A DNA stretch of 64,000 nt, taken from Minisyncoccota bacterium (GTDB lineage Bacteria > Patescibacteriota > Minisyncoccia > JBAYJV01). The position numbers were made by a program, and so were the translations under genes. Shown here one piece after another: positions 25,264-48,665 of the stretch. The first letter of the stretch is position 1. Every line of letters starts with the position of its first letter. The notes below the pieces were generated by a model, which made no database searches, was not told the DNA's origin, and saw nothing but the letters and a program-made list of their open reading frames with translations. The stretch lies in NCBI GenBank assembly GCA_041664925.1, contig JBAYJV010000002.1, positions 136,302 through 200,301 on the forward strand, written 5' to 3'.

Positions 25264-25311
25264 AGTAGTAAGGTTACAGATAATTGCCTATTTTTCTTTA
25301 ACCTTTTTTAG

Positions 25312-25453: not shown

Positions 25454-25465
25454 GTTATCAAATTA

Positions 25466-26148: not shown

Positions 26149-26175
26149 TTAACGCCTATTTTTTTTCCTCATTAG

Positions 26176-26196
26176 TTAGTGTATAAAACACACTTA
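26176..26196. promoter_or_regulatory. Candidate NrtR operator 3 (TTAGTGTATAAAACACACTTA, near-perfect palindrome)
   Basis: Between nrtR and the PP2C gene; GT-N7-AC core. Confidence 0.55.
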
Positions 26197-26243
26197 AAAG
26201 GGTTTAGTTCTTCCTGATTTTTACAAATTTTTTTACCCCTTAA

Positions 26244-26264
26244 TTAGTGTTAATAATACACATA
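26244..26264. promoter_or_regulatory. Candidate NrtR operator 4 (TTAGTGTTAATAATACACATA), overlapping the likely island promoter
   Basis: Followed by CATACT -10-like element and the AGTTCTTTA start motif at 26272. Confidence 0.5.
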
Positions 26265-26345
26265 CTCATATAGTTCTTTAGCCTAAGTAAGTAGTACTTT
26301 AACAATTTAAAAACTCACAAAGCTCTCAATAACCCCTCAAGGACG

Positions 26346-29077: not shown

Positions 29078-29155
29078 AAAAGGAGGCAAGTAAAAAACAA
29101 AAATGGCCGCCCGGAAAATCGAACCGCAGCAAAAAGGATCAAAGGAGGATCCGCA

Positions 29156-30217: not shown

Positions 30218-30288
30218 GAACCAAAAAAAACGGAGGCAGGCAAGAAAGCTTGTCTGCCTCCACTCTCTCAAAAGCAAAGGAGGCTTCT

Positions 30289-31083: not shown

Positions 31084-31350
31084 TTGTTCTTTGACAAAAT
31101 CAGGGAGGGATTGTGAAAGCATAATCCCTCCCTTTTTCAAAAAATTATTGTCATTATTCTTAAAAACGTTTAAAATCATTGACAAAACGCAAATTTATTA
31201 TAGAATAGTATGTCAGAATGATAAAGCAATTTTAGAAAATTGAAGCGGAAAAATTCGGCTCTAATTTTCTAGCCTTGATTGGTATCGAGGCTAAAGTACC
31301 TAAACAAAGCTCATAAAAAAACAGCGATAAAGGACAAGGAGGTCCAAGAA

Positions 31351-32331: not shown

Positions 32332-32407
32332 AAGCTTTGAGGCGAGAGAAAAGCTTCTCGCCTCCTTTCTCCGACTACTTAGTAAATATTAGGTGCTCGA
32401 AGTAAGT

Positions 32408-32554
32408 TAGTTCTTTAAAAAATAAATATAAGGCTCTAATACAGGCTTATGCGAAACAAAGCGTAGCCCCAGTACCAGAATTCGCTTCGCTCATTCGGTA
32501 CAGGGCGTAAGAGTTTATAAGTTTCGCTTTGCTCAACAACAAACACTAACGGAG
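32408..32554 (+). promoter_or_regulatory. Conserved structured leader, copy a (…taaggctctaatacaNgcttatgcgaaacaaagNgtagccccNgtacc agaattcgcttcgctcattc ggtacagggcgtaag…ctaacggaggtg)
   Basis: About 90% identical over roughly 110 nt to copies at 35510-35662 (+) and 47385-47510 (-); hairpin cccNgtacc/ggtacaggg; ends in a shared RBS. Confidence 0.6.
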
Positions 32555-32560
32555 GTGCGC

Positions 32561-33205
32561 ATGGAAGGCAAGGTCAGAATCGCTGTTGGCGGTTCTGCCG
32601 CCAACCCCCCTCATCTCGGACATTTGCAAGTATTGAGATTCTTGATTCATACTAAGCAATTTGACAGAATCATCTGGATACCTTGTGGATCAAGAACCGA
32701 TAAAAAAGACCTTGTTGAAGCTTCCCATCGTCTCGCGATGGTAAATCGTTTTATGGAAAGTTTCACTCACAAAGAAATGGAAGTGCTTGATGTACGAGAC
32801 GATGATGTTAGAGGAGACAACACGCCGACAATTGAATGGCTTGAAAGATTAACCAGAGAATTTCCTGATGCGGAGATCTGGTGGTTTACAGGTTCCGATT
32901 CGATTATTCCTCAGAAAAAATTCGGCGGAAAATCTGAAATTGAAGCTTGCTGGATCAGGGGAGAGGAGTTATTGCGCAATTATAACTTCTTAATTCTTGT
33001 CAGACCAGGATATCCGATTCCAAACAATCTCAAGTTTCCAGGCAACATTAAAATTGTCAACACGAATCTTGAAGATGTTTCAAGTTCGGAAACGCGCGAT
33101 CTGATCAAAGAGCAGGATAGCGCCTTTGAAAGACTTGTGCCAAAAAAAGTTGCAGAATACATAAAAGAAAACCATCTTTATGGATGGAAAGGAGATGGAA
33201 AGTGA
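32561..33205 (+). CDS. nadD: Nicotinate/nicotinamide mononucleotide adenylyltransferase (NadD-like)
   Basis: 'GGSAANPPHLGHL' (HxGH) and 'SSSETRDLI' (ISSTxxR) nucleotidyltransferase motifs. Confidence 0.75.
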   Translation: MEGKVRIAVGGSAANPPHLGHLQVLRFLIHTKQFDRIIWIPCGSRTDKKDLVEASHRLAMVNRFMESFTHKEMEVLDVRDDDVRGDNTPTIEWLERLTREFPDAEIWWFTGSDSIIPQKKFGGKSEIEACWIRGEELLRNYNFLILVRPGYPIPNNLKFPGNIKIVNTNLEDVSSSETRDLIKEQDSAFERLVPKKVAEYIKENHLYGWKGDGK

Positions 33206-34449
33206 ATCGTCAGAAAGATAAACCGATCATTACAAGTCTGCTCGACTCTGACTTCTATAAATACACAATGGGACAAGAAAGTTTCCATCGCCACCCAACC
33301 GCACAGGTAACATTCAGCCTAACCAATCGAACAAGATCGGTAAGGCTTGCCGATTGTGTGGATATCGGAAGGCTCAGAGAAGAATTAGACGAAGTTCGTA
33401 AATTGGCTTTTACTATTTCCAATATCCATTACCTGCGCGGCACGGACGAATATGGACAAAGAATGTTTAGGGAAGATTACCTGGAACATTTGAAGGCTCT
33501 GCGACTAGGAGCTTATGACCTCGATGTGGTCGATGGTCAATTCCATCTGGAGTTTTCTGGTCCATGGTCTGTGGTAACTTACTGGGAAACTCTTGCTCTT
33601 TCGATTCTTACGGAACTTTACACTGAGTATCAATTGAGCAAAATGAGTCGACTTGAACAAGATGCTGTTTTAGCTCGCGGATATACTCAACTTCTGGAAA
33701 AAGTTAGGATTCTCAAGAGCTTCCCTGATATAACTCTTACTGATTTTTCATCTCGACGCCGAGCTTTTAGAGAATGGCAAGATTACGTTGTTAGTGTTCT
33801 TATTGAAGAGCTTCCTGGACAATTCCGTGGAACCTCAAATGTCCTTCTCTCAGACAAATATGGTACAGTGCCAATGGGAACTGCGGCTCATGAGCGCGAT
33901 ATGATTATAGCAGGAATTATGAGCGATACTGACGAAGGTATTCTTCGAACAATCCAAATGACACTCGAGAGTTGGTGGGAAGAATACGGAGAAGCACTTT
34001 CTGTCGCTCTACCAGATACGTTCGGCACAGATGCGTTTTTTAGGGCGATGACTGCTGAACAGGCAGCAAAATGGAAGGGATTGAGACAAGATTCAGGAAA
34101 TCCATTTACTTTTGTAGATAAAGTAATCGCTTTCTATAAGAGTCATGGAATCGATCCACAAAAAAAGCTTATAGTTTTTAGTGATGGTTTGGAAATTGAT
34201 AAAATTCTTGCTATCGCAGATTATTGTCGAGGGAAGATTAGGGCAACATTTGGATGGGGAACCAATCTTGGAAACGATCTCGGACTTCAGGCTCTATCCT
34301 TGGTTATTAAGGCAACCCGTGCAAATGGCAAACCACTTGTTAAACTCAGCGATAACCTCGCAAAGGCAATTGGTCCAAAAGACGAAATTGATCGTTACAA
34401 GCGTATCTTCGGATACGATGTGATACTCAACGAACAACCAAAGTACTAA
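33202..34449 (+). CDS. pncB: Nicotinate phosphoribosyltransferase (PncB/NAPRT family)
   Basis: 'SLLDSDFYKYTMGQ' N-terminal NAPRT signature; about 415 aa; start uncertain (ATG 33184 or GTG 33202 after RBS aaaggag). Confidence 0.7.
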   Translation: MNRQKDKPIITSLLDSDFYKYTMGQESFHRHPTAQVTFSLTNRTRSVRLADCVDIGRLREELDEVRKLAFTISNIHYLRGTDEYGQRMFREDYLEHLKALRLGAYDLDVVDGQFHLEFSGPWSVVTYWETLALSILTELYTEYQLSKMSRLEQDAVLARGYTQLLEKVRILKSFPDITLTDFSSRRRAFREWQDYVVSVLIEELPGQFRGTSNVLLSDKYGTVPMGTAAHERDMIIAGIMSDTDEGILRTIQMTLESWWEEYGEALSVALPDTFGTDAFFRAMTAEQAAKWKGLRQDSGNPFTFVDKVIAFYKSHGIDPQKKLIVFSDGLEIDKILAIADYCRGKIRATFGWGTNLGNDLGLQALSLVIKATRANGKPLVKLSDNLAKAIGPKDEIDRYKRIFGYDVILNEQPKY

Positions 34450-34642
34450 AGCTTTGGGGCGAGAGAGAAAAACTTTTCTCGCCCCCTTTCTCCAGTCACT
34501 TATTATTAGGTGATTGAAGGAAGTCTGTTAGTAAGCTCAGGACAAATCCTTCGACAGGCTCAGGATAAATCCTTCGATAAATTTGTGGTTAACATGTCTA
34601 ACCACTCAGGACAAGTCAGTTCTTTAAAAAATAGACAAGGAG

Positions 34643-35377
34643 ATGATAAGAGTGAAAACGATCATGATTAACGGCAAAGAAGTACCCGTAACAGGAGAAA
34701 GCGTTGACCAAGCTATTAATAGTATAATTTTTAAGGATTGGTTGGCATCATTGAATCGACTGTTCGTAATCAAATCAATCCATTTTCAATCAGTTGACAT
34801 TTCTCCTAGGACATCAAGGGTAAAATTTATCAAAGCTAAAATAGAATTAATTGATTGTGATGGAAGTAAATTTACGAACATCATTTTCATGCGTGGCGGT
34901 GCAGTTACAATTCTCTTTGTTATTCATGTGGATAAAGAAGAATTCACAATTTTGACTCGTCAGCCTCGTCTACCCTCAGGATCATTTAGACTATTGGAAA
35001 CTCCTGCCGGTACAATTGACACGAGCGAAACTGCTGTCAAAGTTGCCGTCAGAGAAATTTGGGAAGAAGTGGGTATTAAGATTCGCGAAAATCAATTAAT
35101 AGATCTAACTGCGCACTTTCATGAAAAACGCCATAAGGGTATTTATACATCACCTGGAGCATGTGATGAGTTCCTTCGAATCTTTCTCTGTGAAATCACT
35201 ATGACAGATGGTGAGTTGGAGCAATTAAGAGGAAAACTTACAGGACTTAGAGATGAAGGCGAAAGAATTACCTTGGAGGTTTTTCGCCTAAGAGAACTTC
35301 CTTTTGAAGCTCCTGATGCCAAATCTCTTGCCGCTCTAGCCTTGTATGATGCTTACATACGAGAGCACAGTACTTAG
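34643..35377 (+). CDS. Nudix hydrolase (ADP-ribose / NAD-derivative pyrophosphatase-like)
   Basis: Nudix box 'GTIDTSETAVKVAVREIWEEVGI'. Confidence 0.7.
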   Translation: MIRVKTIMINGKEVPVTGESVDQAINSIIFKDWLASLNRLFVIKSIHFQSVDISPRTSRVKFIKAKIELIDCDGSKFTNIIFMRGGAVTILFVIHVDKEEFTILTRQPRLPSGSFRLLETPAGTIDTSETAVKVAVREIWEEVGIKIRENQLIDLTAHFHEKRHKGIYTSPGACDEFLRIFLCEITMTDGELEQLRGKLTGLRDEGERITLEVFRLRELPFEAPDAKSLAALALYDAYIREHST

Positions 35378-35397
35378 TATAAAAGCACATAAAACAA

Positions 35398-35462
35398 GAG
35401 GCGACTTAAGTCGTCGCCTCCTTTCTTGGATGACTTAGAAAACTAAGTCATCGAAGTAAGTC
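35398..35462 (+). repeat. Identical ~65-nt junction module: terminator gaggcgacttaagtcgtcgcctc + hairpin ATGACTTAGaaaaCTAAGTCAT + cgaagtaag
   Basis: Exact second copy at 36828-36892; related modules at 32336-32400 and 34452-34520, all followed by AGTTCTTTAA. Confidence 0.7.
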
Positions 35463-35509
35463 CTCCGATAGATTCGATTTACTCACTACAAGCTAAACTC
35501 AGGACAAGT

Positions 35510-35662
35510 AGTTCTTTAACAATATAATATAAGGCTCTAATACAAGTTTATGCGAAACAAAGTGTAGCCCCGGTACCAGAATTCGCTTCGCTCATTCGGT
35601 ACAGGGCGTAAGAGCTTCTAAATTTCGTTTCACTCAACAAGAGTCTCTAACGGAGGTGTAAC
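35510..35662 (+). promoter_or_regulatory. Conserved structured leader, copy b
   Basis: See 32408-32554. Confidence 0.6.
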
Positions 35663-36826
35663 ATGCAAATAGTCTACACTGGAGAAAATCTTCCTAAAAA
35701 GATTGTCAAATCTATTTTTCTTGCCGGTCCAACGCCGCGATCAAAAGAAACGAATTCGTGGCGACCGGAAGCCTTAAGAATTCTCGAAGAGAAAGGTTTT
35801 AATGGAACAGTTTTTGTTCCGGAATTCAGAAATCGCGACAAAGAATACGCTGACGATATGGAAGAAAATACTATCTCTTGGGAAGAACAAGCTCTGAATA
35901 TGGCCGATTGTATTCTTTTCTGGATACCGCGAGATCTCAAAACCATGCCGGCTTTCACAACGGATGTTGAGTATGGCGAATGGTTTAAATCAGGCAAGAT
36001 TGTTTTGGGCGCTCCAAAGAATGCTCCCAAAATGAGCTATCTTTTGAAACGCGGACAGAAATATTACATTCCGCAGGCTACAACTCTTGAAAATACTATT
36101 GATATGGCCCTAGCTATGATTGGCAATGGCGCGCTGCGTGTTGAAGGAGAATGCCAGATACCATTACACATCTGGAAAACCGGATCTTTCCAATCGTGGT
36201 ATCAAGCCCAGATTCAAGCAGGCAATCGGCTGCACAGCGCCAAAGCAGAATGGGTATTCAGAGTTGGACCAAAGAAACAAATATTCTTCATTTGGATTCT
36301 CCATGTTGATATATATATCACTGCTGAAGAAAGACACAAGACCAATGAAGTTGTTATCGGCCGTCCCGACATTTCTACGGTCGCTCTGTATATAAGAGCT
36401 GATGACATTATGGATTCTGATATTGTTCTTATTAAAGAGTTTTGCAGTCCTGCTGCGACTGCCGATGGATATGTCTGGGAACCTCCCGGCGGCTCTTCAA
36501 TTAAAGGAGAGTACGATCCCCGAAAGTTAGCAGTAGATGAGGTTTTTGAGGAAACCGGACTTAAGATTAGCCCGGATAGAATCATTTTCAATGGCGCGCG
36601 GCAAATCTATGGAACCTTGTTGTCACATAAGGCATTTCTTTTCTCTGCGGAAATCACTAGAAACGAATTGGATTGGCTTATATCTCAAATTGGCATCGTT
36701 CACGGAGTAGAAAAAGATACTGAAAGAACATATGTGGAAATTGTCAAACTTCGAGATATTTTGAGCCAAGAACTTGTAGATTGGAGCGCATTAGGTATGC
36801 TTTTCGCTGCGCTCACAAAGAAATAA
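35663..36826 (+). CDS. Fusion protein: N-terminal nucleoside 2-deoxyribosyltransferase-like (NDT/Rcl-like Rossmannoid) domain + C-terminal Nudix hydrolase domain
   Basis: N-terminal 'IFLAGPTPRS...W...CILFWIP...EYGEWFKSGKIVLGAP' NDT-like pattern; C-terminal Nudix box 'GGSSIKGEYDPRKLAVDEVFEETGL'. Confidence 0.6.
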   Translation: MQIVYTGENLPKKIVKSIFLAGPTPRSKETNSWRPEALRILEEKGFNGTVFVPEFRNRDKEYADDMEENTISWEEQALNMADCILFWIPRDLKTMPAFTTDVEYGEWFKSGKIVLGAPKNAPKMSYLLKRGQKYYIPQATTLENTIDMALAMIGNGALRVEGECQIPLHIWKTGSFQSWYQAQIQAGNRLHSAKAEWVFRVGPKKQIFFIWILHVDIYITAEERHKTNEVVIGRPDISTVALYIRADDIMDSDIVLIKEFCSPAATADGYVWEPPGGSSIKGEYDPRKLAVDEVFEETGLKISPDRIIFNGARQIYGTLLSHKAFLFSAEITRNELDWLISQIGIVHGVEKDTERTYVEIVKLRDILSQELVDWSALGMLFAALTKK

Positions 36827-36827
36827 G

Positions 36828-36892
36828 CGCTTGAGGCGACTTAAGTCGTCGCCTCCTTTCTTGGATGACTTAGAAAACTAAGTCATCGAAGT
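36828..36892 (+). repeat. Junction module, exact copy of 35398-35462
   Basis: Identical sequence. Confidence 0.7.
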
Positions 36893-37016
36893 AAGAAGTT
36901 CTTTAACAAATAATCCTCCTTCGCCCCGGCTTGCCGGGGCTTCGGAAGGATGTAATATTTTCTAAATCTCGTTTCTCTCGGTAAGAAAATCTAACAAACA
37001 CTAACGGAGGTGTAAG

Positions 37017-37832
37017 ATGCAAGGAAAAATCGTCTATTCTGTTATTTTCCCCGAACCAGGTTCTCTTGGAAAAGAAAGGTCAGATGATGTCAGAAAATGG
37101 CTAGAAGAATTCTTGATCCCAGCTGGCATTGCAACTCTCTATGAAGACGAAGCTAATGCCTATCTGGTCGCAACTGGTGATGGTGGTCTCATAAGAGCTA
37201 TTCGTGAAAAACATAATAAAGGAAAGATTTTTGTCGGGGCTAACCGCGGAACTTTAGGTTTCTTACTAAATCCTATCCAGAAAATTAAAGATATCCCTTT
37301 GGATTTCAATGAATTACAACTAGTCGACCTTGATCTTATTCAGGTAACATTTATTCTAAAAGATGGCTCAAAAGTTGGACCATTTTTAGTGTTTAATGAT
37401 GTCATGTGCGGTACCAAACCCGCCGGCTGGATTAAATTCACTATTCAGGGATCATTGAGCTATTATCCTAACAGAACCTGCTGGGGAAATTGCGTTTTTG
37501 TGTCAACGCCTCAGGGAGCCACAGGACTGGCACTTAAAGCTCGAGGGACTGGAGCGGTTCTGCCACTTGATAGTAAAACCTGGTTTGTTGGCGGATTCGC
37601 GATCGGACCTTATCCTTGCGATATTGTTCAGCCTCAGAAAATCACGATTGAGGTTGAGTCCAGAGAGGATCCTATTTACGCTAATGCTGACGGACGTGCT
37701 AGAGAAGTTGAAAATGTCGCAAAAGTCATCGTTGAGCCAACAGATAAATCCGTAACCTTAGGATTCTTAAAAAGTATCGACTTTGCGGCACGAAGAACTC
37801 AATTAGCCCAAAAAACGGAAAGGGGTGAGTAA
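37017..37832 (+). CDS. nadK: NAD kinase-like (ATP-NAD kinase family)
   Basis: 'VATGDGGLIRA' (GGDG), 'NRGTLGFL' (NxGxxGFL), 'STPQGATGLALKARG' motifs. Confidence 0.7.
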   Translation: MQGKIVYSVIFPEPGSLGKERSDDVRKWLEEFLIPAGIATLYEDEANAYLVATGDGGLIRAIREKHNKGKIFVGANRGTLGFLLNPIQKIKDIPLDFNELQLVDLDLIQVTFILKDGSKVGPFLVFNDVMCGTKPAGWIKFTIQGSLSYYPNRTCWGNCVFVSTPQGATGLALKARGTGAVLPLDSKTWFVGGFAIGPYPCDIVQPQKITIEVESREDPIYANADGRAREVENVAKVIVEPTDKSVTLGFLKSIDFAARRTQLAQKTERGE

Positions 37833-37833
37833 A

Positions 37834-38799
37834 ATGACAACAAACTCGGCATCTCGCGTTGTAATCTTCACTACTGAGGCGTCGCGATATTTCGCCGAAC
37901 TAATTGCCCAAAGATTGGAAATTCCAATTACCGAAACCCATCGAAGAACTTTTGGTGGCGGTGAAAGATACTATCGTCTCGATATTGACGACAGAGGAAG
38001 CTTAGTTAATAAGGTTGCGATCATTGTAGGATCAACTCATACTGATGAAGATTTTCTTGAAATTGCAAGGATTGGCAGAACCTTAGCTTCATGCGGAACA
38101 TCACGGCGCATCTTCGTCATTCCTTTCTTTGGTTATTCGACCATGGAAAGAGATAAAAAGCCGGGAGAAGTTGTCACGGCAAAAGATTGCGCATGTATTC
38201 TTTCAAGCATACCCAATTCTGGGCTTGGTAATGTTTTTCTAATGATGGATTTGCACGAAGCTGGGTTGGTCCATTATTTTGAGGGTGACTGTGTTAGAAG
38301 AGAGCTTTATGCAGAATCTATTCTGGTTCCAGCTGCCATAGATCTTGGTCTTCGAAATTTCGTAATGGCGACCACCGATCTTGGCAGATCTGATTGGGTG
38401 GAAACATATGCCAAGAAACTCAAGGCAGGCGACATGGCTTTTGTTAGAAAAGCTCGCGATTACGAAATTACTAAAGTTCTTTGCGTTATTGGAGATGTTT
38501 TTGGCGAGATTCTCGTCCCATATGACGATATGATTAGAAGCGGAAGTACTTTCTTTAAGGCAATGCATGCTTATCTTGAAAAAGGAGCAAGTCAGTTTTA
38601 TCCGCTTTTAGGCCACTTAGCATTTAATGATGAATCTGTTATTCAAGAAATTGAAAACGATCCAACGATTGTCCATGTAATTGGCACCAACACTCATTCT
38701 ATGAGTCAGCATCCGTTGGTAAAACAATCTAAGAAAATCGAGGTTGTTGATGTGTCGCCGATTTTCGTAGAAGCAATCCAACAAATAATCGCAGTTTGA
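37834..38799 (+). CDS. prs: Ribose-phosphate pyrophosphokinase family protein (Prs-like; divergent flexible loop FGGGERY)
   Basis: 'IPFFGYSTMERD', 'MDLHEAG', 'VPYDDMIRSGSTF' align with Prs motifs (PYYGYARQDR, DLHA, DDIIDTAGT). Confidence 0.65.
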   Translation: MTTNSASRVVIFTTEASRYFAELIAQRLEIPITETHRRTFGGGERYYRLDIDDRGSLVNKVAIIVGSTHTDEDFLEIARIGRTLASCGTSRRIFVIPFFGYSTMERDKKPGEVVTAKDCACILSSIPNSGLGNVFLMMDLHEAGLVHYFEGDCVRRELYAESILVPAAIDLGLRNFVMATTDLGRSDWVETYAKKLKAGDMAFVRKARDYEITKVLCVIGDVFGEILVPYDDMIRSGSTFFKAMHAYLEKGASQFYPLLGHLAFNDESVIQEIENDPTIVHVIGTNTHSMSQHPLVKQSKKIEVVDVSPIFVEAIQQIIAV

Positions 38800-38809
38800 A
38801 AGGAGAAGA

Positions 38810-39799
38810 ATGTTTAAAAGACCACTGGAAGAGGTTGATGAAAGATTAATCCAAGAAGCAAAAGGTTTAGCTGTTGGCCGAAAACGCGTTTCAGTTGCAT
38901 TTTCTGGTGGCGTTGATTCTACGGTTGTGGTAACAATTCTCTGCCGTGCTTTTGGAGCTGAAAATGTTCTTGCGTTCTATCGCAATATTAGAAGTAATCC
39001 TCTACATGAAGCACATGTCTACGAATTACAAGAACTATTAGGTTTTAATCTTATGGCTGTTGATGCTAATCCAATTTACGACACAATTGTTGGTCAAGCT
39101 CGCGAATGGTTTCAAACACATGGCTACGAGTGGCATAACGAAAATCAACCGGGCACAGAAGAAAGCGGATTCACCAACGCATTCGCTTCTCTCAAGTCCC
39201 GCATCACTACTCCCTATATGGGATTTCTTGCTAAGGCTTGGGATGGTGGAAAAGGTATAATCTTTGGCACAGGAAATGCCGAAGAAGACGGACTTGTCCG
39301 CTACTTTGACAAGTATGGAGACGGAGCGGTTGATAATAATATTTTGAGTGGTCTAACAAAGATGGAAGTCAGACAGATTGCTCTTTATTACGCCAAGGTT
39401 TATGGCAAAGACGGTAAAGAAGCTCAAATTTTCAGAGCTATTGCTGAAAAGTTACCATCAGCCGATCTTAAAGCATGTGGAGATGTTCACAATGACGAGA
39501 GCGAACTGACTTTTTGGGCAAGAACCATGGGATACGATATTCAAATTTCCTATGGCGATTGCGAAAAAGAAGGCAATCTTGCTTGGGCGCTCAAACAAGA
39601 TCTTGATCACGGAGTCATAACCGGTAGCAAAAATCATTGGGGAAGCACTGGTCTTAGTTCATACCTTGACTACACAGATAAACAGATTAAGCTCATTGCG
39701 TTCCTGCGAAAAATTGAGCGCTCAACCAGGCATAAAGCTAATCCTAATATGCCTGGATTGTCGAGAGTTACTCTTAGGATGGAAGGTTACGTAGACTAG
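38810..39799 (+). CDS. nadE: NH3-dependent NAD+ synthetase (PP-loop ATP pyrophosphatase)
   Basis: 'VAFSGGVDSTVV' PP-loop; NadE-like length and layout. Confidence 0.75.
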   Translation: MFKRPLEEVDERLIQEAKGLAVGRKRVSVAFSGGVDSTVVVTILCRAFGAENVLAFYRNIRSNPLHEAHVYELQELLGFNLMAVDANPIYDTIVGQAREWFQTHGYEWHNENQPGTEESGFTNAFASLKSRITTPYMGFLAKAWDGGKGIIFGTGNAEEDGLVRYFDKYGDGAVDNNILSGLTKMEVRQIALYYAKVYGKDGKEAQIFRAIAEKLPSADLKACGDVHNDESELTFWARTMGYDIQISYGDCEKEGNLAWALKQDLDHGVITGSKNHWGSTGLSSYLDYTDKQIKLIAFLRKIERSTRHKANPNMPGLSRVTLRMEGYVD

Positions 39800-39810
39800 G
39801 AGGAGGCACC

Positions 39811-40164
39811 ATGACCGAAGAAACAGTGCTTCAGAAGGCAAGACGATTAAGAGGCGAAATTGCAGTACTTCAAGTCGACCTAGATGGAACAAGAAGAGAA
39901 TTAGATGCTCTAGAGAAATCATGTCGTCATGATTGGACAAATCCTGAGCGTATTGATGATCGAGTCATTTCAGGATATCAAGATCATGGTGATCCTCCAG
40001 GCACTATAGGAGTGGATCGCAGACTTCCCTGTTACGTGCCTGAACAAAGGTTTCCTCGATGGATGCGCAAATGTAGAACATGCGGATTAGCTCAAATCAC
40101 TGAAGATTTTGAAGAAAAAACAGGTTCCACAAAAGTTCCTTCATTTCCTGCTACGCAGCATTAA
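39811..40164 (+). CDS. Small protein with putative Cys zinc ribbon (CRHDW ... CRTCG)
   Basis: RBS aggaggagg; coiled N-terminus; last gene of the plus-strand island operon. Confidence 0.45.
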   Translation: MTEETVLQKARRLRGEIAVLQVDLDGTRRELDALEKSCRHDWTNPERIDDRVISGYQDHGDPPGTIGVDRRLPCYVPEQRFPRWMRKCRTCGLAQITEDFEEKTGSTKVPSFPATQH

Positions 40165-40214
40165 AACAAATCTCCCTAGCCAGCGCGCTAGGGAGTTTTT
40201 CTTTGTCTACATTT

Positions 40215-41969
40215 TTATGGTTGTAACCTGATATCTAAATATTTTTTCCAAATATCAATCGTACCACCGCCACTTTGCCATTTTTGCCAAAATTCTTCAT
40301 AATCTTTTTTTGTAGGAATCGCTGCGCAAAAATCTTTTCCTTGTTTTACATAATCAGAATCAATCCATTGCAATAATCCAATCTTTCTAAATTCCCACGC
40401 TTCATCATAACGATAAACTTTCCCTGAAATATAAACCATCTGAGTACTTCCATTTTCTTTAGTAATTCTAAACCAACTAAATGGATTTGAATCAATTTGC
40501 CATTTTTTGCTTTTTTCAAATTTATTGACAATTTCCGCAATCTGCTTAATATCTTCTTCAGTTAAATTACCCTGCATGATTAAGTCTGCGGCTGATGGCG
40601 CGCCTTCTGGCGCTCTTTCTTGAATAACATATCGAAAAGGCGGACCTTCTTTATCGCTATCGATAATATTTAAATGCGGAACGCCAAACTCATCCAAAGT
40701 CTTCTGACGTTCGATTATCTGATACATTGACTTAAAAACATTATGATCATTGCGTGTATCACCGCGGACAAACTTCAAAACCAAATCTGGATATTCTTTA
40801 AGTCTTAAAATAATTTTTTTAGTTCCAATTTTAATTGATTCTCTGTCAATTTGAAATTCTTGACCGCCAATATTAACGACTTCTCTTTCTAGGTCAACAC
40901 TAATTGAGTTAAGGATTTTTTTATAGTCTACTTCTTCGGGTAATATTTTTTGTTCTTCAGCATCTTCAAAAACAGCTTCCGGTTTTTCGGCAACAACGAC
41001 CATGTGTGTCATTGGAAAATCTGTTTTTTCAAGTCCTTCGTCGGTCATTTTATAAAGTCCGATTTTTCCTTGAAGTCGATTTTTTAGAATCCACTCGTTC
41101 GGATCAGGAACAATCTGAACATTTACGTAACCAATTTCTTCTAAAACTCTTTTAGCCTCCTCAGGTGTCCAATAAGTATATTTTTCTTCAATCTCGCTTC
41201 GCCAATTTCCGGTATAATCTTTGCGCAAATAAAATTCGTGCGCCCATTCAGGACTTAATTTTATATATTCTTCTCCATCAATAATTACTCTTTCATAATC
41301 AAAAGCATTACCGCCGCGAAATTCTTGATGGAAACGATCAAACAAAGCCGATGTTGAAAGTTCGTTATAATCAATATCTTCTTTGACAGTTCCTTCAGGC
41401 ACTTTTTCCAGACCGGCTTTTGAAATAATTTTCATATAAACTGGTTCCTGATTTTCCGGCTTTGCGAAGTCTCGAACAATTACTCTGCCACCAGCCTCAA
41501 GTTCTAAAAAAGTATTTTCCATAGCCTTGCGTGCACTACCTTGACCGCCAAAAGACTCTGCTTCGTGAAGGCTTGTGGAATAATATTTAACCTTGACTGA
41601 ACCTGAGGGAAAAACTTTTTCCCGGGCATCAGCATGAAGTAAACGCACTAAAGAACCCCTGTCGCTTGCTTGTTCTAATTGTTCGTGAGAAAGATCTTCA
41701 CCATAAACACGCGTATGAGGAAATGTGCGTGCAATCAGCTCCGCTACCTGCCCGGTACCAGAACCAGCATCAACGATAACATCACCGTCCTCAACATTAA
41801 AATAGGGAGCAATTGAATCAACTTTTGCCAGGGTTGCAGCGTCAAGCGATTGATTATAAATCGTAAAATCACGGTGTTCGTCAGCCACCTCAAAATGTTC
41901 TTCTAATGCTTCTCTATTAAGCATTTCCCCTCTGTCAACATTCTCAATTTTGCTCTTTTGTTCAGACAT
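40215..41969 (-). CDS. Class I SAM-dependent methyltransferase domain + ~350-aa C-terminal domain of unknown function
   Basis: 'VIVDAGSGTGQVAELIA' motif I, acidic motif II 'YGEDLS'; convergent with the island operon. Confidence 0.55.
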   Translation of the reverse strand: MSEQKSKIENVDRGEMLNREALEEHFEVADEHRDFTIYNQSLDAATLAKVDSIAPYFNVEDGDVIVDAGSGTGQVAELIARTFPHTRVYGEDLSHEQLEQASDRGSLVRLLHADAREKVFPSGSVKVKYYSTSLHEAESFGGQGSARKAMENTFLELEAGGRVIVRDFAKPENQEPVYMKIISKAGLEKVPEGTVKEDIDYNELSTSALFDRFHQEFRGGNAFDYERVIIDGEEYIKLSPEWAHEFYLRKDYTGNWRSEIEEKYTYWTPEEAKRVLEEIGYVNVQIVPDPNEWILKNRLQGKIGLYKMTDEGLEKTDFPMTHMVVVAEKPEAVFEDAEEQKILPEEVDYKKILNSISVDLEREVVNIGGQEFQIDRESIKIGTKKIILRLKEYPDLVLKFVRGDTRNDHNVFKSMYQIIERQKTLDEFGVPHLNIIDSDKEGPPFRYVIQERAPEGAPSAADLIMQGNLTEEDIKQIAEIVNKFEKSKKWQIDSNPFSWFRITKENGSTQMVYISGKVYRYDEAWEFRKIGLLQWIDSDYVKQGKDFCAAIPTKKDYEEFWQKWQSGGGTIDIWKKYLDIRLQP

Positions 41970-42053
41970 AAAAATTAAAAAGTTTTTTTAATTTGTTTAT
42001 ATTGCTATTGATTTTTTAAAAAAATGTGCTAATGTAAAAAATAGGAGGCGAGA

Positions 42054-42512
42054 ATGGATATCAAGGCAAAATCGGCATACCCCGCAAGCGCATTAAGCAA
42101 TTTCGCTCCGCATTCTTTTGAGATAGATGGCGTTAAGTGCGCTTCGATGGAAGGGTTTCTTCAGTCGCTTAAAGTCACGGATCCATTCTTTCAAATAGAT
42201 GTTTGTCAGCTAGTTGGCTCTGATGCCAGACATTGGGGCGACGAACACAATGCCGAATGGAGAAAAGCTCAGACATTGTGGTGGCAAAGCAAAGCCTATG
42301 ACCGCCATAGTCCTGAATATCAAGAACTTCTTGACCGAGCTTTTGAGGCGCTTCTCAAAAACGAAGATTTCAGAAGAGCTCTCTTGATAACCAATCAAGA
42401 AACCCTGACTCATTCCATCGGTCAGACCGACCCGCACATTTCCATTCTTACGCAGGAAGAATTCTGTTCGCGCTTAATGAAAATGCGCAGTAGATTGCTT
42501 CTCAAAAAGTAA
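42054..42512 (+). CDS. NADAR (YbiA-like) domain protein
   Basis: 'LSNFAPHSFEIDGVKCASMEGFLQSLK' signature of the NADAR/DUF1768 family; terminator gaccgcc...ggcggtc + T-run follows. Confidence 0.65.
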   Translation: MDIKAKSAYPASALSNFAPHSFEIDGVKCASMEGFLQSLKVTDPFFQIDVCQLVGSDARHWGDEHNAEWRKAQTLWWQSKAYDRHSPEYQELLDRAFEALLKNEDFRRALLITNQETLTHSIGQTDPHISILTQEEFCSRLMKMRSRLLLKK

Positions 42513-42793
42513 GGTTCATTGACCGCCGCATGACAAAAACTTGAGGCGGTCTTTTTTTACTTCAAAACATCTAACATTTCCAAAAGCTCTTTTTTTATTT
42601 CATCTGGCGGAATATCATCTTTTTCGGGATATTGTTGTTTTTCTAAACTTTCCATATTTTCATTTTATCCCAATAAAAAGAAATATACAAAAATAAATTT
42701 CCATAATCTGATTATGGGATGGAAATGACCGTTGTGCTTGACGTAAAATAATTTATATGCTATACTGACAATATAATTGAAAAGGAGGCAGAA

Positions 42794-43066
42794 ATGTATC
42801 TCGAGCTGCACGATAACGAAAAAGGCAATACTCTCTGCGCTAGGGTTAAAGATATCGAATACGATTATGTGGCTGAACAGTGGGTAATTGATACTCACAA
42901 TGATGCCAGTGCTACTAAAGTCGTCAAGTGGATTCTCTATGATGACATAGGAATTCGCTGTGTCTGGGAACGCCCTGAAGGCGACGAGTCAATGCCCAGC
43001 ATTACCCAGCGCTCTGCCCGCTTTACTGGAAAGTGGGAAAAGGGACCCGCTGAAGTTTCAATCTAA
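42794..43066 (+). CDS. Hypothetical 90-aa protein
   Basis: Promoter TTGACG-17-TATACT, RBS aaaggagg. Confidence 0.45.
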   Translation: MYLELHDNEKGNTLCARVKDIEYDYVAEQWVIDTHNDASATKVVKWILYDDIGIRCVWERPEGDESMPSITQRSARFTGKWEKGPAEVSI

Positions 43067-43254
43067 GCTACCGAAGATACATACCCAATTTACCGCCAAT
43101 ATACCAAAAGGTTGAGGCGGTTTTTTTAAAAAAAACATATAAAAAAAAGACTGCTTTTAATTTAGTGAACAATATTCTGTTTTCTTCTGCAATAAAAAAA
43201 AGAGGGGTCCGGCGTACATCATCTGCCGAACCCCTTCTACTCGTAAGCGCTAGC

Positions 43255-43569
43255 TTACCGCACTTCGACTTCTTCCTTGAGAAGCGTGGCATAACCAAGC
43301 TTCTCGAGAAGTCTCTCGATCTTCGCGCGCGGACCCTTGATCGTTCCACACGAACTGACGTGATCGCCATAGTCGGTGGTGACAATTTCGGCTCCGACCG
43401 TCTTGTGTCCTTCGTCAATCTTCCAGGAAATGGAAGCAACAGGCGACCAACAAGCACAATTCACGCCGTCGGCACCAAGAATGTCGACATGTTGCGAAGC
43501 TCCCGTGTTTCCGATCTGGCGAATTCCGACAACATCTTCCACAACAACAACCGGTTCTTGCTTTTCCAT
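43255..43569 (-). CDS. GC-rich ~104-aa hypothetical protein (HVDILGADGVNCAC motif)
   Basis: Promoter 'TTGACAtttaaaatataatatgcTATAATg' with the same -10 context as the GC-rich def; RBS gagggagg; strong terminator 'aggggttcggcagatgatgtacgccggacccct' + T8. Overlapping ORFs 43068..43457 and 43165..43596 rejected. Confidence 0.5.
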   Translation of the reverse strand: MEKQEPVVVVEDVVGIRQIGNTGASQHVDILGADGVNCACWSPVASISWKIDEGHKTVGAEIVTTDYGDHVSSCGTIKGPRAKIERLLEKLGYATLLKEEVEVR

Positions 43570-43690
43570 AATGCCTCCCTCTTTTTCGTTTCTTAATGCC
43601 ATTATAGCATATTATATTTTAAATGTCAACAAGAAATACTGTATTGTAAATAAAAAAACCTTTAAAAAGAGGTTTTTCATAATTTATTCT

Positions 43691-44347
43691 TTATTTTTCT
43701 AATTTTTTATTAGTTGAATTTCCTTGATTTTTATTTTGACGGTTGAGTTTGCGATTGCGGAAATATTTTTTTATCCTTGGAATTACAAAGAGAAATAGAA
43801 TTGCAATAATAGCTACAGCAACTAAAATTTTACCAACAGTAAGATGTTCAGCAACACTTTGCCATCTTTTTCCCAATAAACGACCCGCAGTAACATAACC
43901 ACCGCTCCAAAGCATTGCTGATGCAATGACTGCCGGCAAAAATTTTCTAGGCGAAATTCTCATTAAGCCAGCTGCCACTGAAGCATAGCCTCGCAAGTAG
44001 GGGACTAAGCGCCCCAGAAAGACGCCAAGAGTTCCTCGACGATTAATATTTTCCTTAAATTTTTCAATCTTTTCAGCAGGAAACCAACGGGAAGCAAAGT
44101 GTACAATCCGATCGCCAAAAAAATAGAAAACCAGGTAAAGAATGGTCGTACCAATAAAATCTGCCGCTACGCCAAATAAAAGAATAAGGGAAAATTTAAG
44201 AGCGCCCGTAGAAGCAAGATAGCCCGCAAATAACAAGATAATTTCATTAGGAACAGGATTGGGCACGCCTAATTCTTGCAAAAATATCATTGAAAAAACT
44301 GCTAAATAACCGTATTTTGTTATATAAATTGCTAGCTCTGGAGGCAT
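43691..44347 (-). CDS. dedA: DedA/SNARE-associated family membrane protein
   Basis: DedA-type pattern with 'GYLASTG', 'RLVPYLRGYASVAAGLMRIS'. Confidence 0.75.
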   Translation of the reverse strand: MPPELAIYITKYGYLAVFSMIFLQELGVPNPVPNEIILLFAGYLASTGALKFSLILLFGVAADFIGTTILYLVFYFFGDRIVHFASRWFPAEKIEKFKENINRRGTLGVFLGRLVPYLRGYASVAAGLMRISPRKFLPAVIASAMLWSGGYVTAGRLLGKRWQSVAEHLTVGKILVAVAIIAILFLFVIPRIKKYFRNRKLNRQNKNQGNSTNKKLEK

Positions 44348-44540
44348 ATTGGTAAAAACTTAATCACTACATTTAATATTCCATAATCATATCAGAAAAA
44401 AATGTCGCTAGGAAGAGTCTCGATATCTAAATTGTGGATATCTATATTAATTTAATTTACTAATAAATTTTGTTTTATAAAAATAAAATGTTATTATTAA
44501 CATAGATTTGTAATTTGCGCATATTTGCGTATTAAATTCT

Positions 44541-45275
44541 ATGGATAAAAATTCAAAACCAGTAATCTATTTGGGTATTATTTTAGGAGTAAGTTTTGTC
44601 GCTTGTGCGCTGATTTTCGGATTATTTTTTTATAATAAAAAACCGATAGATAACACTCTAACAGTTACTGGTTCTGCTAAAAAAACTGTTACTTCTGATT
44701 TGGGAAAATTAATCGGATCGTTTTCGCGAACCGTTACTATCTACGACCTTAAATCAGGTTATGAACAAATGGCAAGCGACTTAGTGATTGTAAAAGATTT
44801 TTTCAAGAAACAGGGGATTGATGAAAAATCGCTTGTTATTTCTCCTGTTTTTATGGATCAACAATATAAATATGATTCTAGCGGTCAAGCGCCCACTGAA
44901 TATATGTTGCGCCAAACAATTGAGTTGCAATTGAAAGATGTTAATAAAATCACCCAGCTTTCCAGCGCCACTCAGGAGCTAATTAAAGATGGCGTGCTTT
45001 ATTCAACTCAAGCGCCTGAATATTATTATACTGACTTGGCAAAAACAAGAATCGATCTTTTAGGAGAAGCGGTAAAAGATGCTAAGGCCAGAGCCGATAA
45101 AATTGCTCAGAGTGGGGGACAAAAAGTCAGATCGTTGAATTCAGCTAGCGTCGGCGTCACTCAAGTGACTTCTGTTAATTCGATTGATTCAATCTCCGAC
45201 TATGGCGCCTACGACACATCAAAGATTGAAAAAGAAGTTATGATTACTGTAAAAACAATCTTTTCGTTAAAGTAA
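44541..45275 (+). CDS. SIMPL-domain (BP26/DUF541-like) secreted/periplasmic protein
   Basis: N-terminal TM anchor; SIMPL-like 'LTVTGSAKKTVTSDLGKLIGSFSRTVTIYDL...' layout. Confidence 0.6.
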   Translation: MDKNSKPVIYLGIILGVSFVACALIFGLFFYNKKPIDNTLTVTGSAKKTVTSDLGKLIGSFSRTVTIYDLKSGYEQMASDLVIVKDFFKKQGIDEKSLVISPVFMDQQYKYDSSGQAPTEYMLRQTIELQLKDVNKITQLSSATQELIKDGVLYSTQAPEYYYTDLAKTRIDLLGEAVKDAKARADKIAQSGGQKVRSLNSASVGVTQVTSVNSIDSISDYGAYDTSKIEKEVMITVKTIFSLK

Positions 45276-45347
45276 ATATATTCTAGAGTTATAAATGAAA
45301 AAAAGAGGTTCGTCTTGAACCTCTTTTGTGTTCGTCACTAAACTAAT

Positions 45348-45641
45348 CTAACTTCTACGAAATCTCACTTGACGATTGCGTGCAAGTAATTCCTTTGGCA
45401 TTCTCAGGCAAAAATATACTCTTTTATATTCAGCCAAAGACACTACGATAGAAGAGATCAATCCAACAAGTCCTGCTACAAAAACAAGTAATGTCAAACA
45501 TTCATCTGTCCAGTAATAATCACAAGTAAGATTATCCGAAGAATAATATTTCCTCCAATAACCCTTGTTGATTCCATAGCCGAAGAATCCCAGAACAAAC
45601 CACCCGGCTAAAGTAATCGCAATTACTGTTGCAGTTGACAT
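45348..45641 (-). CDS. Small membrane protein behind a modular conserved leader
   Basis: RBS 'ctctaaaggaggaaagATG'. Leader GTAGTCCcggcaagccGGGACTA hairpin + AGCTTTTAAGCTCAC.AAAGTTTGCTAAAAATCTCTAAAGGAGG. Promoter TTGACA-16-TAATAT then AGTTCTTAAAAA. Confidence 0.5.
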   Translation of the reverse strand: MSTATVIAITLAGWFVLGFFGYGINKGYWRKYYSSDNLTCDYYWTDECLTLLVFVAGLVGLISSIVVSLAEYKRVYFCLRMPKELLARNRQVRFRRS

Positions 45642-45865
45642 CTTTCCTCCTTTAGAGATTTTTAGCAAACTTTTGTGAGCTTAAAAGCTCTTAGTCCCGG
45701 CTTGCCGGGACTACATCCATATTATTTTTTAAGAACTATTTACATATTACTATTAAGAATAAAAAATGTCAATAAAAAAAAGCGGCGCTTGTCTTCGCGC
45801 CGCATGAAATTCTCTCTTTAGAAAATGTCCAATTCTTTAACGAGATGAGACTAGAAAATATTAAG

Positions 45866-46315
45866 TCATCCTGAAACTTTTGGTCTAGGCATACACAACA
45901 TTATTGCTTTCGCAATACTATCTTGACATGTGCGATCTTCCGCTGCAGCTCGCGCGATATTCCAGAAAACTCTTGCTTGTTCAGCATCAAGTTCTAGATA
46001 AGGAATGTCAAAATATTCTGAACTTACTTCAAATGCCTCTCTGTCTTCTGTCTTTTCTCTTAATGTTACAACCTGATAAACAACACATTCTTCAGTCACA
46101 AACTCGATTTCGTCATGTTCCTCAGTCCAGATAAATCCCTTGACTACAAATGTTTGCCCTTCTAGATTGTCGACTCCTAATTCCTGCGCTATTGATTCTA
46201 GTACTTCACTTAACTCTTCTTGTAGTAGGTCTTTCGGTTTTACACCAGAAAATTTAATCCTTTGCCCAACTCGAACCGGTTCATAAATCCTAACCTTCTT
46301 AGTCGATTCGCTCAT
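45866..46315 (-). CDS. Hypothetical acidic protein
   Basis: 149-aa ORF with RBS. Confidence 0.45.
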   Translation of the reverse strand: MSESTKKVRIYEPVRVGQRIKFSGVKPKDLLQEELSEVLESIAQELGVDNLEGQTFVVKGFIWTEEHDEIEFVTEECVVYQVVTLREKTEDREAFEVSSEYFDIPYLELDAEQARVFWNIARAAAEDRTCQDSIAKAIMLCMPRPKVSG

Positions 46316-46334
46316 CTTGCATCCTCCTTATGCT

Positions 46335-46679
46335 CTACTCAATGTACTCTCTGAAAATCTCGCGAACCTTTGCCGGGCATTCTTCCGGAAGCCATTCCTG
46401 CACGCTCAAAAGTTCATCATCAATCATTTCAAGAAGAAGTTGGTCATATTCAACTTCGCCAGGTCTCTTAGATTCATAGCCAGTATGAGTCTGTAAATCA
46501 AAGAAACGAAAAGCCTTGATAGGTTTGTTTTCTTTTCGTGCAATCGCCCTTACAATATCTTCGGCGCAATTGATAGTGGATAAGCTTTCTCTGCCAGTTG
46601 CGGTAAAGACGCAAATCCCTTCATCAAGAATCACATAAGCTATTCCCTTATGGTGCACATCGATGATTTTCTTTTTCAT
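46335..46679 (-). CDS. Hypothetical protein
   Basis: 114-aa ORF, RBS aggaggatg. Confidence 0.45.
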   Translation of the reverse strand: MKKKIIDVHHKGIAYVILDEGICVFTATGRESLSTINCAEDIVRAIARKENKPIKAFRFFDLQTHTGYESKRPGEVEYDQLLLEMIDDELLSVQEWLPEECPAKVREIFREYIE

Positions 46680-46680
46680 T

Positions 46681-47172
46681 TTATCTCCCTTCCTTAGGAC
46701 ACGGACAAAGAGCTTTAGAAGGAGAAATAATGACCAGAACCAATAAGCGGATAAGCATTATGATACACCAGCAAACTGTTGTAAAAATATTCCAGATAAT
46801 CTTAAACCACCAACCGCCAATCGCCATGAAGAAGAGATATCGATTAATTTTTTCTTTTTGTTCTTTGTAGTATCTGCTTGATTCGTTAACTGGTAATGGC
46901 ACCAAAAAACTATCAAACCCATCGACTAACCTACTTATTGGCCATAAAAAACAGTATAAGAAACGATGCCATCTTTTTTCTCTGTCGTAATTCCAATAGA
47001 GCTTGAGGTTTAGCTTCCCAACGCAGTAACCAATATTCAGATAGATAATCGACAACGCCGGAATACTTACCTGAAGCGGGATTGCTTTCCAAAAAACAAT
47101 CACCATTGAAACTACGAGTGCCATTACCGCCAGCGCCACCCACTGCCACACCTTCTTTTTCATCCTGTGCAC
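46681..47172 (-). CDS. Integral membrane protein, unknown
   Basis: Multiple TM helices; ~340-nt composite leader upstream (47173-47515). Confidence 0.5.
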   Translation of the reverse strand: MHRMKKKVWQWVALAVMALVVSMVIVFWKAIPLQVSIPALSIIYLNIGYCVGKLNLKLYWNYDREKRWHRFLYCFLWPISRLVDGFDSFLVPLPVNESSRYYKEQKEKINRYLFFMAIGGWWFKIIWNIFTTVCWCIIMLIRLLVLVIISPSKALCPCPKEGR

Positions 47173-47384
47173 CTCCCTTAGAGATTCTTACTGAACGCTA
47201 GTGAAGTATAGAAGATCTTAGGTCCCGCCGAAGCTGAAGGCGAAGGCGGACATATTCTATACCCCCTGTAATTACTTTATGCGAAGAAGGACTACTTTTG
47301 ATTTCTTACTGAACTACGGTGAAGTTAGAAACTCTTAGGTCCCGTACCGTGCTTTGCTCTGGTACGGGACTACCTTTAACTTGT

Positions 47385-47510
47385 TGTTGAGTGAAACGAA
47401 ACCTACAAACCCTACGCCCTGTACCGAATGAGCGAAGCGAATTCTGGTACCCGAGGCTACACCTTGTTTCTAATAAGCTTGTATTAGAGCCTTATATTTT
47501 TTTTTAAAAG
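47385..47510 (-). promoter_or_regulatory. Conserved structured leader, copy c (minus strand), within a ~340-nt multi-module leader that also has two GGGACCTAAGA hairpin modules
   Basis: Reverse complement matches copies a and b; followed by GTAGTCC...GGGAC hairpins and the 'TCTCTAAGGGAGG' RBS module. Confidence 0.6.
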
Positions 47511-47622
47511 AACACTTGTATCCTATCAAATAATCTTCTTTATGTCAAATTTTAAACAAAAATATGGAGTAAATATTAATACAATAAAAAATCAGCGGAA
47601 AACTGTTCTCCGCTGATCTTCT

Positions 47623-48432: not shown

Positions 48433-48665
48433 TTGTTCCTCCTTTAGGTTTTCTTTCTGAGCATAGCGAAGATTAGAAAATCCATGCCCTGAGTTTATCG
48501 TAGGGTTAAGTCCCGCTGAAACTTTAGTGAAGGCGGACTACATTTAATTCCTTTTTTTTTAGAGAACTACGAACATTATAGTAAAAATATATATAAAAGT
48601 CAAGATTTTAATAAAATGTTAAGATAAAAATACTCGGACAACCTCTGTTATCCGAGTATAAATAC

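Follow-up and report, generated by a model that had tools for sequence, protein, structure and literature searches.

Why should one and the same 5' leader stand before genes of NAD (nicotinamide adenine dinucleotide) metabolism and, in the same genome, before a small membrane-protein operon? The question arises from 64,000 nucleotides (nt) of contig JBAYJV010000002.1, from a Minisyncoccota bacterium, a stretch that was analysed at its full length and is called the window here. Copies A and B of the leader lie on the plus strand and precede nadD-pncB and a gene for an NDT-Nudix fusion, respectively, and copy C lies on the minus strand before the membrane-protein operon. An original prediction, made from the DNA letters alone, had located the three copies and quoted their consensus correctly, and had seen in them a riboswitch-like or protein-binding regulatory RNA linked to NAD. 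Judged by their sequence, the three copies are one sub-family of a leader grammar that many leaders in the window use. The explanation that we put first, at a little short of an even chance, is that they are a reusable, promoter-proximal cassette of the 5' untranslated region (5'-UTR), which carries a hairpin like that of repetitive extragenic palindromic (REP) elements, is placed before unrelated genes and acts on the stability, processing or translation of the mRNA.

Any two copies are 85.5–87.6% identical over the 136 nt from GTTCTTT to CAACAA, in an alignment that runs from GTTCTTT(A/T)AAAA to CTCAACAA, and at 12–15% divergence they are roughly equidistant. Random 130-mers of the window reach ~49% (maximum 55%). 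Identity drops to this random level, 46–52%, in the 100 nt upstream of each copy, and the repeat thus begins abruptly at the GTTCTT motif. In the window there are exactly three occurrences of the 30-mer GTACCAGAATTCGCTTCGCTCATTCGGTAC and three of the 18-mer ATATAAGGCTCTAATACA, against 0.00 and 0.07, respectively, expected from shuffled sequence. Between the copies 29 of 138 columns vary, none of them in a run of 37 nt that comprises the cap and the 3' arm of the hairpin described below (permutation P ~0.001). A second invariant run, the 19-nt block AATATAAGGCTCTAATACA, is confined to these three copies among all 128 loci fetched. The census of copies covered ~84 kb of one genome, namely the 64-kb window and 20 kb of contig walked beyond it, and no further copy was found in those 20 kb.

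As a whole cassette, copy A runs from 32410 to 32560 on the plus strand, from a GTTCTTTAAAAA motif to the Shine-Dalgarno (SD) sequence GGAGG at 32551–32555, with the nadD ATG at 32561. Most of its invariant 5' block (32426–32443) includes a start-motif variant, GGCTCTAA, and the hexamer AAATAT, which is read as -10-like by analogy with copy B. Next come the GTAG tag and the capped hairpin (32463–32506), made up of GTAG (32463–32466), a 5' arm (32467–32476), the cap GAATTCGCTTCGCTCATTC between the arms (32478–32496) and a 3' arm (32497–32506). The tail, GTAAGAG...CAACAACAAACA (32507–32545), includes a second small capped hairpin, gttTCGCTTTGCTCaac, at 32521–32537. Copy B (35511–35662, plus strand) has its GTAG at 35564–35567, its cap at 35579–35597 and its SD at 35652–35656, and the ATG of the NDT-Nudix gene is at 35663. 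The part of copy C that is shared occupies 47377–47513 on the minus strand, with the start motif at 47513–47502, the 5' block at 47497–47480, GTAG at 47460–47457, the cap at 47444–47426 and the small capped tail hairpin at 47402–47386. A ribosome-binding site directly after the leader had been described for all three; CTAACGGAGGTG plus a start codon does end copies A and B, but copy C continues through two to three more hairpin modules, which makes its leader ~350 nt long (47513 to the ATG at 47163–47161), and only then reaches GGGAGG (47177–47172). This remaining leader (47164–47376, minus strand) is built of extra hairpin-plus-tail modules in direct order: a GTAG at 47373–47370 with the hairpin TCCCGTACC...GGTACGGGA, a second GTAG at 47295–47292 and a hairpin at 47251–47222, and a model of the hairpin plus tail, R1, matches within it at 47171–47238. 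The proteins downstream of copy C have no detectable link to NAD.

The copies also differ in their promoters. A consensus promoter directly upstream and just outside the shared part is found in copy C only (TTGACA-17-TAGGAT, then 6 nt, then GTTCTTTT; 47520–47548, minus strand), and in copies A and B the promoter-like sites are either weak or internal. That of copy B is a sigma-70-like site, AGGACA-16-TATAAT (35501–35528, plus strand), with 10/12 matches, the best in 4.9 kb scanned. Because its -10 hexamer falls within the conserved 5' block, some of what is called the leader may in fact be promoter.

The only stable structure in the leader is one hairpin, of -17 kcal/mol (z -3.4). Folding at full length gives the leaders ordinary z scores (-0.8 to -1.8), and the tail shows no structure when folded by itself (-1.1 kcal/mol, z +0.6). 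With the identity between the copies and the exact word counts, the hairpin makes the structured repeat, consistent in strand and in its 5' leader position, a real one. It had been described as enclosing a conserved 20-nt loop, but this loop is itself paired, with GAAU/AUUC, a UC/UC internal loop, GC/GC and a UUC triloop. A second pairing, of gaaacaaagcg with cgctttg, holds for one copy and not for the others: caaagcg/cgctttg is a perfect 7-bp helix in copy A only, and appears only in the minimum-energy fold of that copy. A closing helix of GUUCUU/GGCUCU with UAAGAG is possible in most leaders and is kept only as an idea because the sequence is of low complexity.

Covariation supports the main hairpin. 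In 20 aligned instances, the homologues having been found via the loop and the alignment fitted to the model, 94% of cells are paired and 14 of the 17 pairs are altered on both sides; none of 500 shuffles did as well, and slid controls were 25–59% paired. The original prediction had been made to hang on compensatory changes in homologues, and these are present, the pairing being kept in other contigs. Counts of G-U against A-C in the tail helix were discarded as a test of strand; this helix had been defined with G-U allowed, and the test was therefore circular. On the sense strand no terminator-like site or U-tract was found after the hairpin, and no CCUCC-type anti-SD or other SD-sequestering partner was found in the leader. 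An attenuator was rejected, as the hairpin lacks a following U-tract. A leader peptide was also considered, for a mini open reading frame (ORF), ATG CGA AAC AAA G(C/T)G TAG (MRNKA* or MRNKV*), ends in the GTAG tag at 32449–32466 and 35550–35567; it was rejected because the ATG of copies A and B is missing from copy C.

At least eight leader modules in the window follow the grammar of the three copies, in which a start motif, GTTCTTAAAAA, is followed by a GTAG-tagged hairpin, then by a TAAGAG tail and lastly by a strong SD. Seven promoters of the form TTGACA-17-TAnnAT are followed after 6–7 nt by GTTCTTAAAAA, which thus falls at the predicted transcript start (2247, 45736, 47513, 48567, 50355 and 54447, with a variant at 51279) and which is complementary to the UAAGAG after the leader hairpins and to the SD. 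Several of these transcripts would next contain a short AT-rich segment, then GTAG, which is unpaired, a hairpin YCCC...GGGR, a (C/G)TAAGAG tail and CTCTAA(A/C)GGAGG. Leaders with the succession GTAG, hairpin, TAAGAG tail and SD start at 45736, 48567, 10604 and 47513 on the minus strand and at 32410 and 35511 on the plus strand, with a variant at 36898 (plus). That at 45645–45736 consists of GTTCTTAAAAAA, GTAG-TCCCGGCaaGCCGGGA, a CTAAGAGC tail and AAAGGAGG, has a different hairpin and a promoter at 45772–45744 (minus strand), and scores 27.9 bits with R1. The leader at 48433–48567 includes a tail hairpin, tctTCGCTATGCTCaga, at 48472–48456, and that at 10480–10604 has GTAG plus gtcctTCGACAAGCTCaggac, a tail and GGGAGG. 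The variant (36898–37016), before the NADK-like/prs/nadE genes, has the start motif and the SD context, CAAACACTAACGGAGGTG, of copy A with a different hairpin.

In copies A, B and C the GTAG adjoins the stem on its 5' side, as it does in the modules at 47373, 45716, 10583 and 48544. Every GTAG module seen is sense to the downstream gene, in 5' leader position and, where there are several, in direct tandem; copy C contains three tandem modules of the grammar. The GTAG hairpin is 44 nt long, and there are 5–8 such hairpins in the 64 kb, three of the sub-type of copies A, B and C in the ~84 kb searched. With R1 the other local leaders score weakly and two foreign contigs strongly. A second, unrelated family of ~130-nt leaders precedes the minus-strand genes for a Dus-like protein (ORF 3–977), mfd and ychF (980–1130, 4730–4880 and 21140–21290); it is a long AT-rich imperfect palindrome, CGAAATnCGAAACAAAT...ATTGTTTCGAnTTTCG. 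The reuse of leaders before unrelated genes is thus a habit of this genome rather than a peculiarity of its NAD genes.

The two foreign contigs came from a metagenome scan for the cap and are its two true homologues of the hairpin plus tail. One (L082; R1 103 bits) precedes an alpha/beta hydrolase gene and lies behind a sigma-70 promoter and start motif of its own, TTTACA-17-TAAGAT-GTTCTTTG. The other (L050; R1 85 bits) precedes fpg, and has at 11990–12140 three tandem capped hairpins with the apices GCTTTAC, GCTTTGC and GCTTCGC, within the 186-nt spacer that separates a 5'-3' exonuclease gene from fpg. Both hairpins fold like that of the copies, and their stems differ from those of the window through compensatory changes. 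In these contigs the hairpin-plus-tail part stands before unrelated genes, without the 19-nt block.

The cap by itself is far more widespread. As a 19-mer it matched >118 metagenome contigs (loci L004–L121), mostly unrelated and from varied habitats and GC contents, where it is often the apex of a hairpin whose flanks are complementary but arbitrary; in 26 of 121 cases four or more perfect bp adjoin it directly. Some matches are coding, for the permease motif EFASLIP. In high-GC soil contigs the cap tops the first hairpin of a REP-like element, CCCCTCACCCG-[hairpin]-CACCCTCTCCCACAAGGGGAGAGGG, other copies of which carry TCGCTTTGCTC, TCGTTTCACTC or TCGCTACGCTC; of these variants, TCGCTTTGCTC and TCGTTTCACTC are also met in leader tails of the window, as the small second hairpin. 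In many metagenomes the 11-nt apex, TCGCTTCGCTC, tops hairpins that are not related to one another. Conservation of the 19-mer as a unit across phyla was rejected; the flanks are unrelated, and the likely explanation is the commonness of the apex. On the simplest reading, UCG-N5-CUC would be a common and intrinsically favourable hairpin cap whose inner pair covaries, and the 19-mer scan is likely to have sampled those apex hairpins whose next 4 bp happened to be GAAT/ATTC. Capped hairpins of the form UCG-N4-6-CUC number 30 in the window against 8.8 +/- 3.2 in shuffles (~3.4-fold); L050 and L082 show an enrichment too, whereas L002, L003, L124 and L126 show none. Clusters of short capped hairpins, CTTCGACAAGCTCAG, CTTCGACTTCGCTCAG and CCTTCGATATACTCAGGA, are seen in intergenic DNA at 63200–63300 (minus strand) and 34540–34600 (plus strand).

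The complement of the apex includes GCGAAGC. Hirao, Yoshizawa and co-workers reportedly described d(GCGAAGC) and GNA-triloop mini-hairpins, in work on the biophysics of short DNA oligomers rather than on a family of genomic elements. The likeness is that the complement reads GA-GCGAAGC-GA and that variants keep the inner pair (GC-UUC-GC vs GU-UUC-AC), and this may be the reason why hairpins without any relation have the apex in common. No paper with the cap or apex sequences in a relevant context was found.

What, then, of the link with NAD? The gene content of the window is that of a bacterial chromosome (Mfd, PriA, UvrA, HisRS, YchF, BipA, RsgA and two tRNAs), and a phage origin was rejected, megablast against phages giving no match. 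Within it lies a compact island for NAD salvage and its regulation (23720–40164), in what is a candidate phyla radiation genome (Paceibacterota). The island encodes NadR-like, PnuC, NrtR, NadD, PncB, Nudix, NDT-Nudix fusion, NADK-like, Prs-like and NadE proteins. Its plus-strand units are, in order, nadD-pncB, the Nudix gene, NDT-Nudix and NADK-like/prs/nadE; pnuC and the NadR-like gene adjoin it on the minus strand, divergent from the gene for NrtR (25378–26148). Most of its enzymes score under the NCBIfam cut-offs, and several ORFs (27212–32331) have no Pfam match. Two of the three copies precede NAD genes, as originally noted, but the association goes no further: the element is absent before the Nudix and the NADK-prs-nadE units, two of the four in the island, and the downstream genes as a whole (nadD-pncB, NDT-Nudix, the membrane-protein operon, alpha/beta hydrolase in L082 and fpg in L050) are not functionally coherent.

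Relatives agree. The nearest public NDT-Nudix proteins are 47–62% identical to that of the window, with no closer one in the protein collection; those of L002 and L003 are at 47–49% and those of L122, L124 and L126 at ~60%. In the NAD loci of these relatives, collected in one scan of genome contigs plus three contig look-ups, the leader was found before none of the five NDT-Nudix genes. L122, L124 and L126 carry a comparable NAD island, with the same intergenic layout of a terminator-like hairpin, a second hairpin or palindrome (CTAYYTA-N4-TARRTRG) and a GTT-type motif.

The island offers a more ordinary route to NAD-dependent control. Its NrtR regulator has an NrtR_WHD domain (E 8e-23) and a NUDIX domain. 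Palindromes ACTTAG-N-CTAAGT, which in the window occur only at the four island units (32377–32394, 34498–34511, 35433–35448 and 36868–36883), are situated upstream of the leader, with a terminator-like hairpin on one side and a GTTCTTTAA motif on the other. They are candidate NrtR operators, with RNA-processing hairpins the alternative; the spacing of the half-sites varies from 4 to 8 nt, and the GT-N7-AC core typical of many NrtR sites is absent. The NrtR operator is a 21-bp palindrome, usually with such a core (PMC2330246). In the leader, checked by eye, the best 21-mer, TAAGGCTCTAATACAAGCTTA, is symmetric at 6–8 of its 10 pairs in the different copies and lacks a GT-N7-AC core. NAD-specific control is thus more plausibly exerted by NrtR at the palindromes, which appear better candidates than the leader. 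One 63-nt intergenic segment of the island, with the terminator-like hairpin and the palindrome, is 100% identical at 35398–35460 and 36833–36895, which points to recent gene conversion between intergenic regions.

The reusable cassette builds on the repeat, the covarying hairpin, the shared grammar and the unrelated gene contexts. If it is transcribed, as we infer, the RNA would start with the conserved motif GTTCTTAAAAA or its variant GGCTCTAA, continue with an unpaired GTAG tag and a very stable REP-like hairpin with the widespread cap UCGCUUCGCUC at its apex, and end in a largely unstructured, CA-rich tail and a strong SD site. It would act constitutively at the RNA level, the hairpin blocking or directing RNases and so stabilising or processing the downstream cistron, the open tail and the SD favouring efficient initiation. 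It would not be a ligand sensor, NAD control being left to NrtR. Copies could have spread by recombination, gene conversion or REP-like mobilisation.

Several observations weigh against this cassette. The invariant 19-nt and 37-nt blocks exceed the conservation that a generic stabiliser needs, and hint either that the sequence is specifically recognised or that gene conversion was recent. Classical 5'-terminal stabilisers lie closer to the end than this hairpin, which is separated from the GTTCTT motif by ~53 nt. The antisense strand of the hairpin folds even better (z -5.2), and the G-U and A-C counts of the main stem, 4 vs 5, give no indication of which strand does the folding. The copy number, moreover, comes from the ~84 kb searched.

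The invariant blocks are the strength of the first alternative, which we consider unlikely, if less so than the others: that a DNA- or RNA-binding factor reads the 19-nt block, the capped hairpin or both, and that nadD-pncB, NDT-Nudix and the membrane-protein operon form its regulon. Variable columns avoid the 37- and 19-nt blocks despite 12–15% divergence, the 19-nt block is confined to the three copies, and the apex sequence is conserved while the stems covary. No candidate factor was identified, however, and the third operon is functionally unlinked to NAD; in other contigs the hairpin plus tail precedes unrelated genes and lacks the 19-nt block. That block also overlaps the -10-like hexamer, which could explain its conservation, and part of it may be a -10 element and start site (compare the promoter-like site in copy B). 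Gene conversion, finally, is active here, as the 63-nt identical repeat indicates.

Nearly on a par with this, and so also unlikely, is a selfish or neutral repeat of the REP or miniature inverted-repeat transposable element type, the GTAG hairpin modules being mobile or recombinogenic DNA with no role for the host. The GTAG super-family of REPs has as its signature an imperfect palindrome with an unpaired GTAG immediately on the 5' side (PMC3733652). There are several intergenic repeat families in the window, tandem modules in copy C and L050, an apex in common with REP-like elements of high-GC bacteria and a main stem that shows no strand asymmetry. Yet all the GTAG modules seen are sense and lie shortly before a gene and after a promoter, whereas REPs are found mainly after ORFs and often as inverted dimers, and the similarity extends beyond the palindrome, from start motif to SD, as a functional unit would. 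Nor is there a Y1_Tnp (RAYT) gene among the precomputed Pfam calls, which cover ~60 kb of the contig.

There is also a bolder proposal, which we hold to be improbable. The GTAG-tagged hairpin capped by UCG-N5-CUC, with its tail, would be an undescribed class of cis-acting 5'-UTR RNA element in Paceibacterota, the apex being read by a dedicated RNA-binding protein or RNase, and the sub-family with the 19-nt block would be a post-transcriptional regulon that ties NAD salvage (nadD-pncB and NDT-Nudix) to a membrane-protein operon. The original failure to match the leader to any RNA family stands: the leader gave no match to Rfam 15, whether the entire window was searched at gathering score or the three copies with E up to 10, and no riboswitch family was found, the nadA and pnuC NAD+ riboswitches included. 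Weakest by far is the riboswitch-like reading, in the form of a metabolite riboswitch for NAD+ or a precursor that controls NAD salvage genes: although two of three copies precede NAD genes, the conserved sequence has a covarying hairpin and the lack of any matching family means that it could be a new class, the idea fails on all the features tested (model match, architecture, expression platform and gene association), the leader offering a single hairpin and an open tail where a multi-helix junction, or an aptamer with pocket-forming conserved unpaired nucleotides, was looked for, and we regard it as highly improbable.

Other repeats and RNAs accompany the leaders. A further repeat family (1147–1235, 1722–1808, 9725–9789 and 10640–10796) lies after the terminators of minus-strand genes or RNAs. 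It consists of a hairpin ATCCCGCACC-AGAATAAATAC-GGTGCGGGAT and a second hairpin ATTGCGT...ACGCAAT; it has ACCAGAAT in common with the leader hairpin, is in the opposite orientation and has no GTAG tag. Two GC-rich non-coding stretches in AT-rich surroundings, 1232–1605 and 1805–2035 (both minus strand; z -3.6 or -3.7), each end in a terminator hairpin and a T-run, and the former has a TTGACA-17-TATAAT promoter. Neither matches an Rfam family, so they are probably unannotated structured RNAs.

The Paceibacterota, part of the candidate phyla radiation, are uncultured, and to our knowledge almost nothing is known of how they control gene expression. The window suggests modular 5' regions that are copied between unrelated genes, and in which a fixed start motif is followed by a capped, REP-like hairpin and this by an open tail with a strong SD. 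Should transcript mapping bear this out, it would provide a usable grammar for the annotation of promoters and leaders in these genomes, and a case of REP-like hairpins recruited specifically to 5'-UTRs. There is also a caution here, that a conserved structured leader before metabolic genes is insufficient for calling a riboswitch, especially when NrtR is encoded nearby.

Comparison with known systems places the proposed cassette between several of them. The leaders of ompA, ermC and aprE carry 5'-UTR stem-loops that stabilise the message, the classical ones within a few nt of the 5' end. A stable leader hairpin followed by an open, strong translation-initiation region is the mode of action proposed here too, but in these copies, barring processing of the RNA or an internal start, ~53 nt separate the GTTCTT motif and the hairpin. 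With the NAD+ riboswitches of class I (nadA motif) and class II (pnuC motif) the leader has in common its position before NAD biosynthesis or salvage genes; it differs in having no Rfam match, comparable architecture, expression platform or NAD-specific gene association. The GTAG-tagged REPs are 20–40 bp long, present in high copy number and associated with RAYT genes; they are probably transcribed, with a presumed role in mRNA stability as RNA hairpins (Di Nocera et al. 2013, PMC3733652). In the modules of the window, as in these REPs, an unpaired GTAG is immediately followed by an imperfect palindrome a few tens of nt long, and one genome has several related families. Unlike the REPs, the modules lie in 5'-UTRs, downstream of promoters, always sense and in direct tandem, carry a ~40-nt tail and an SD, and are modest in copy number, with three of the type in ~84 kb. 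Putative mobile promoters are highly similar upstream regions before non-homologous genes of one genome (Matus-Garcia et al. 2012, PMC3488235). The three copies resemble these in preceding three unrelated units and in a similarity that reaches from the promoter or start site to near the ribosome-binding site; the difference is that what they share would be mainly transcribed leader with a structured hairpin.

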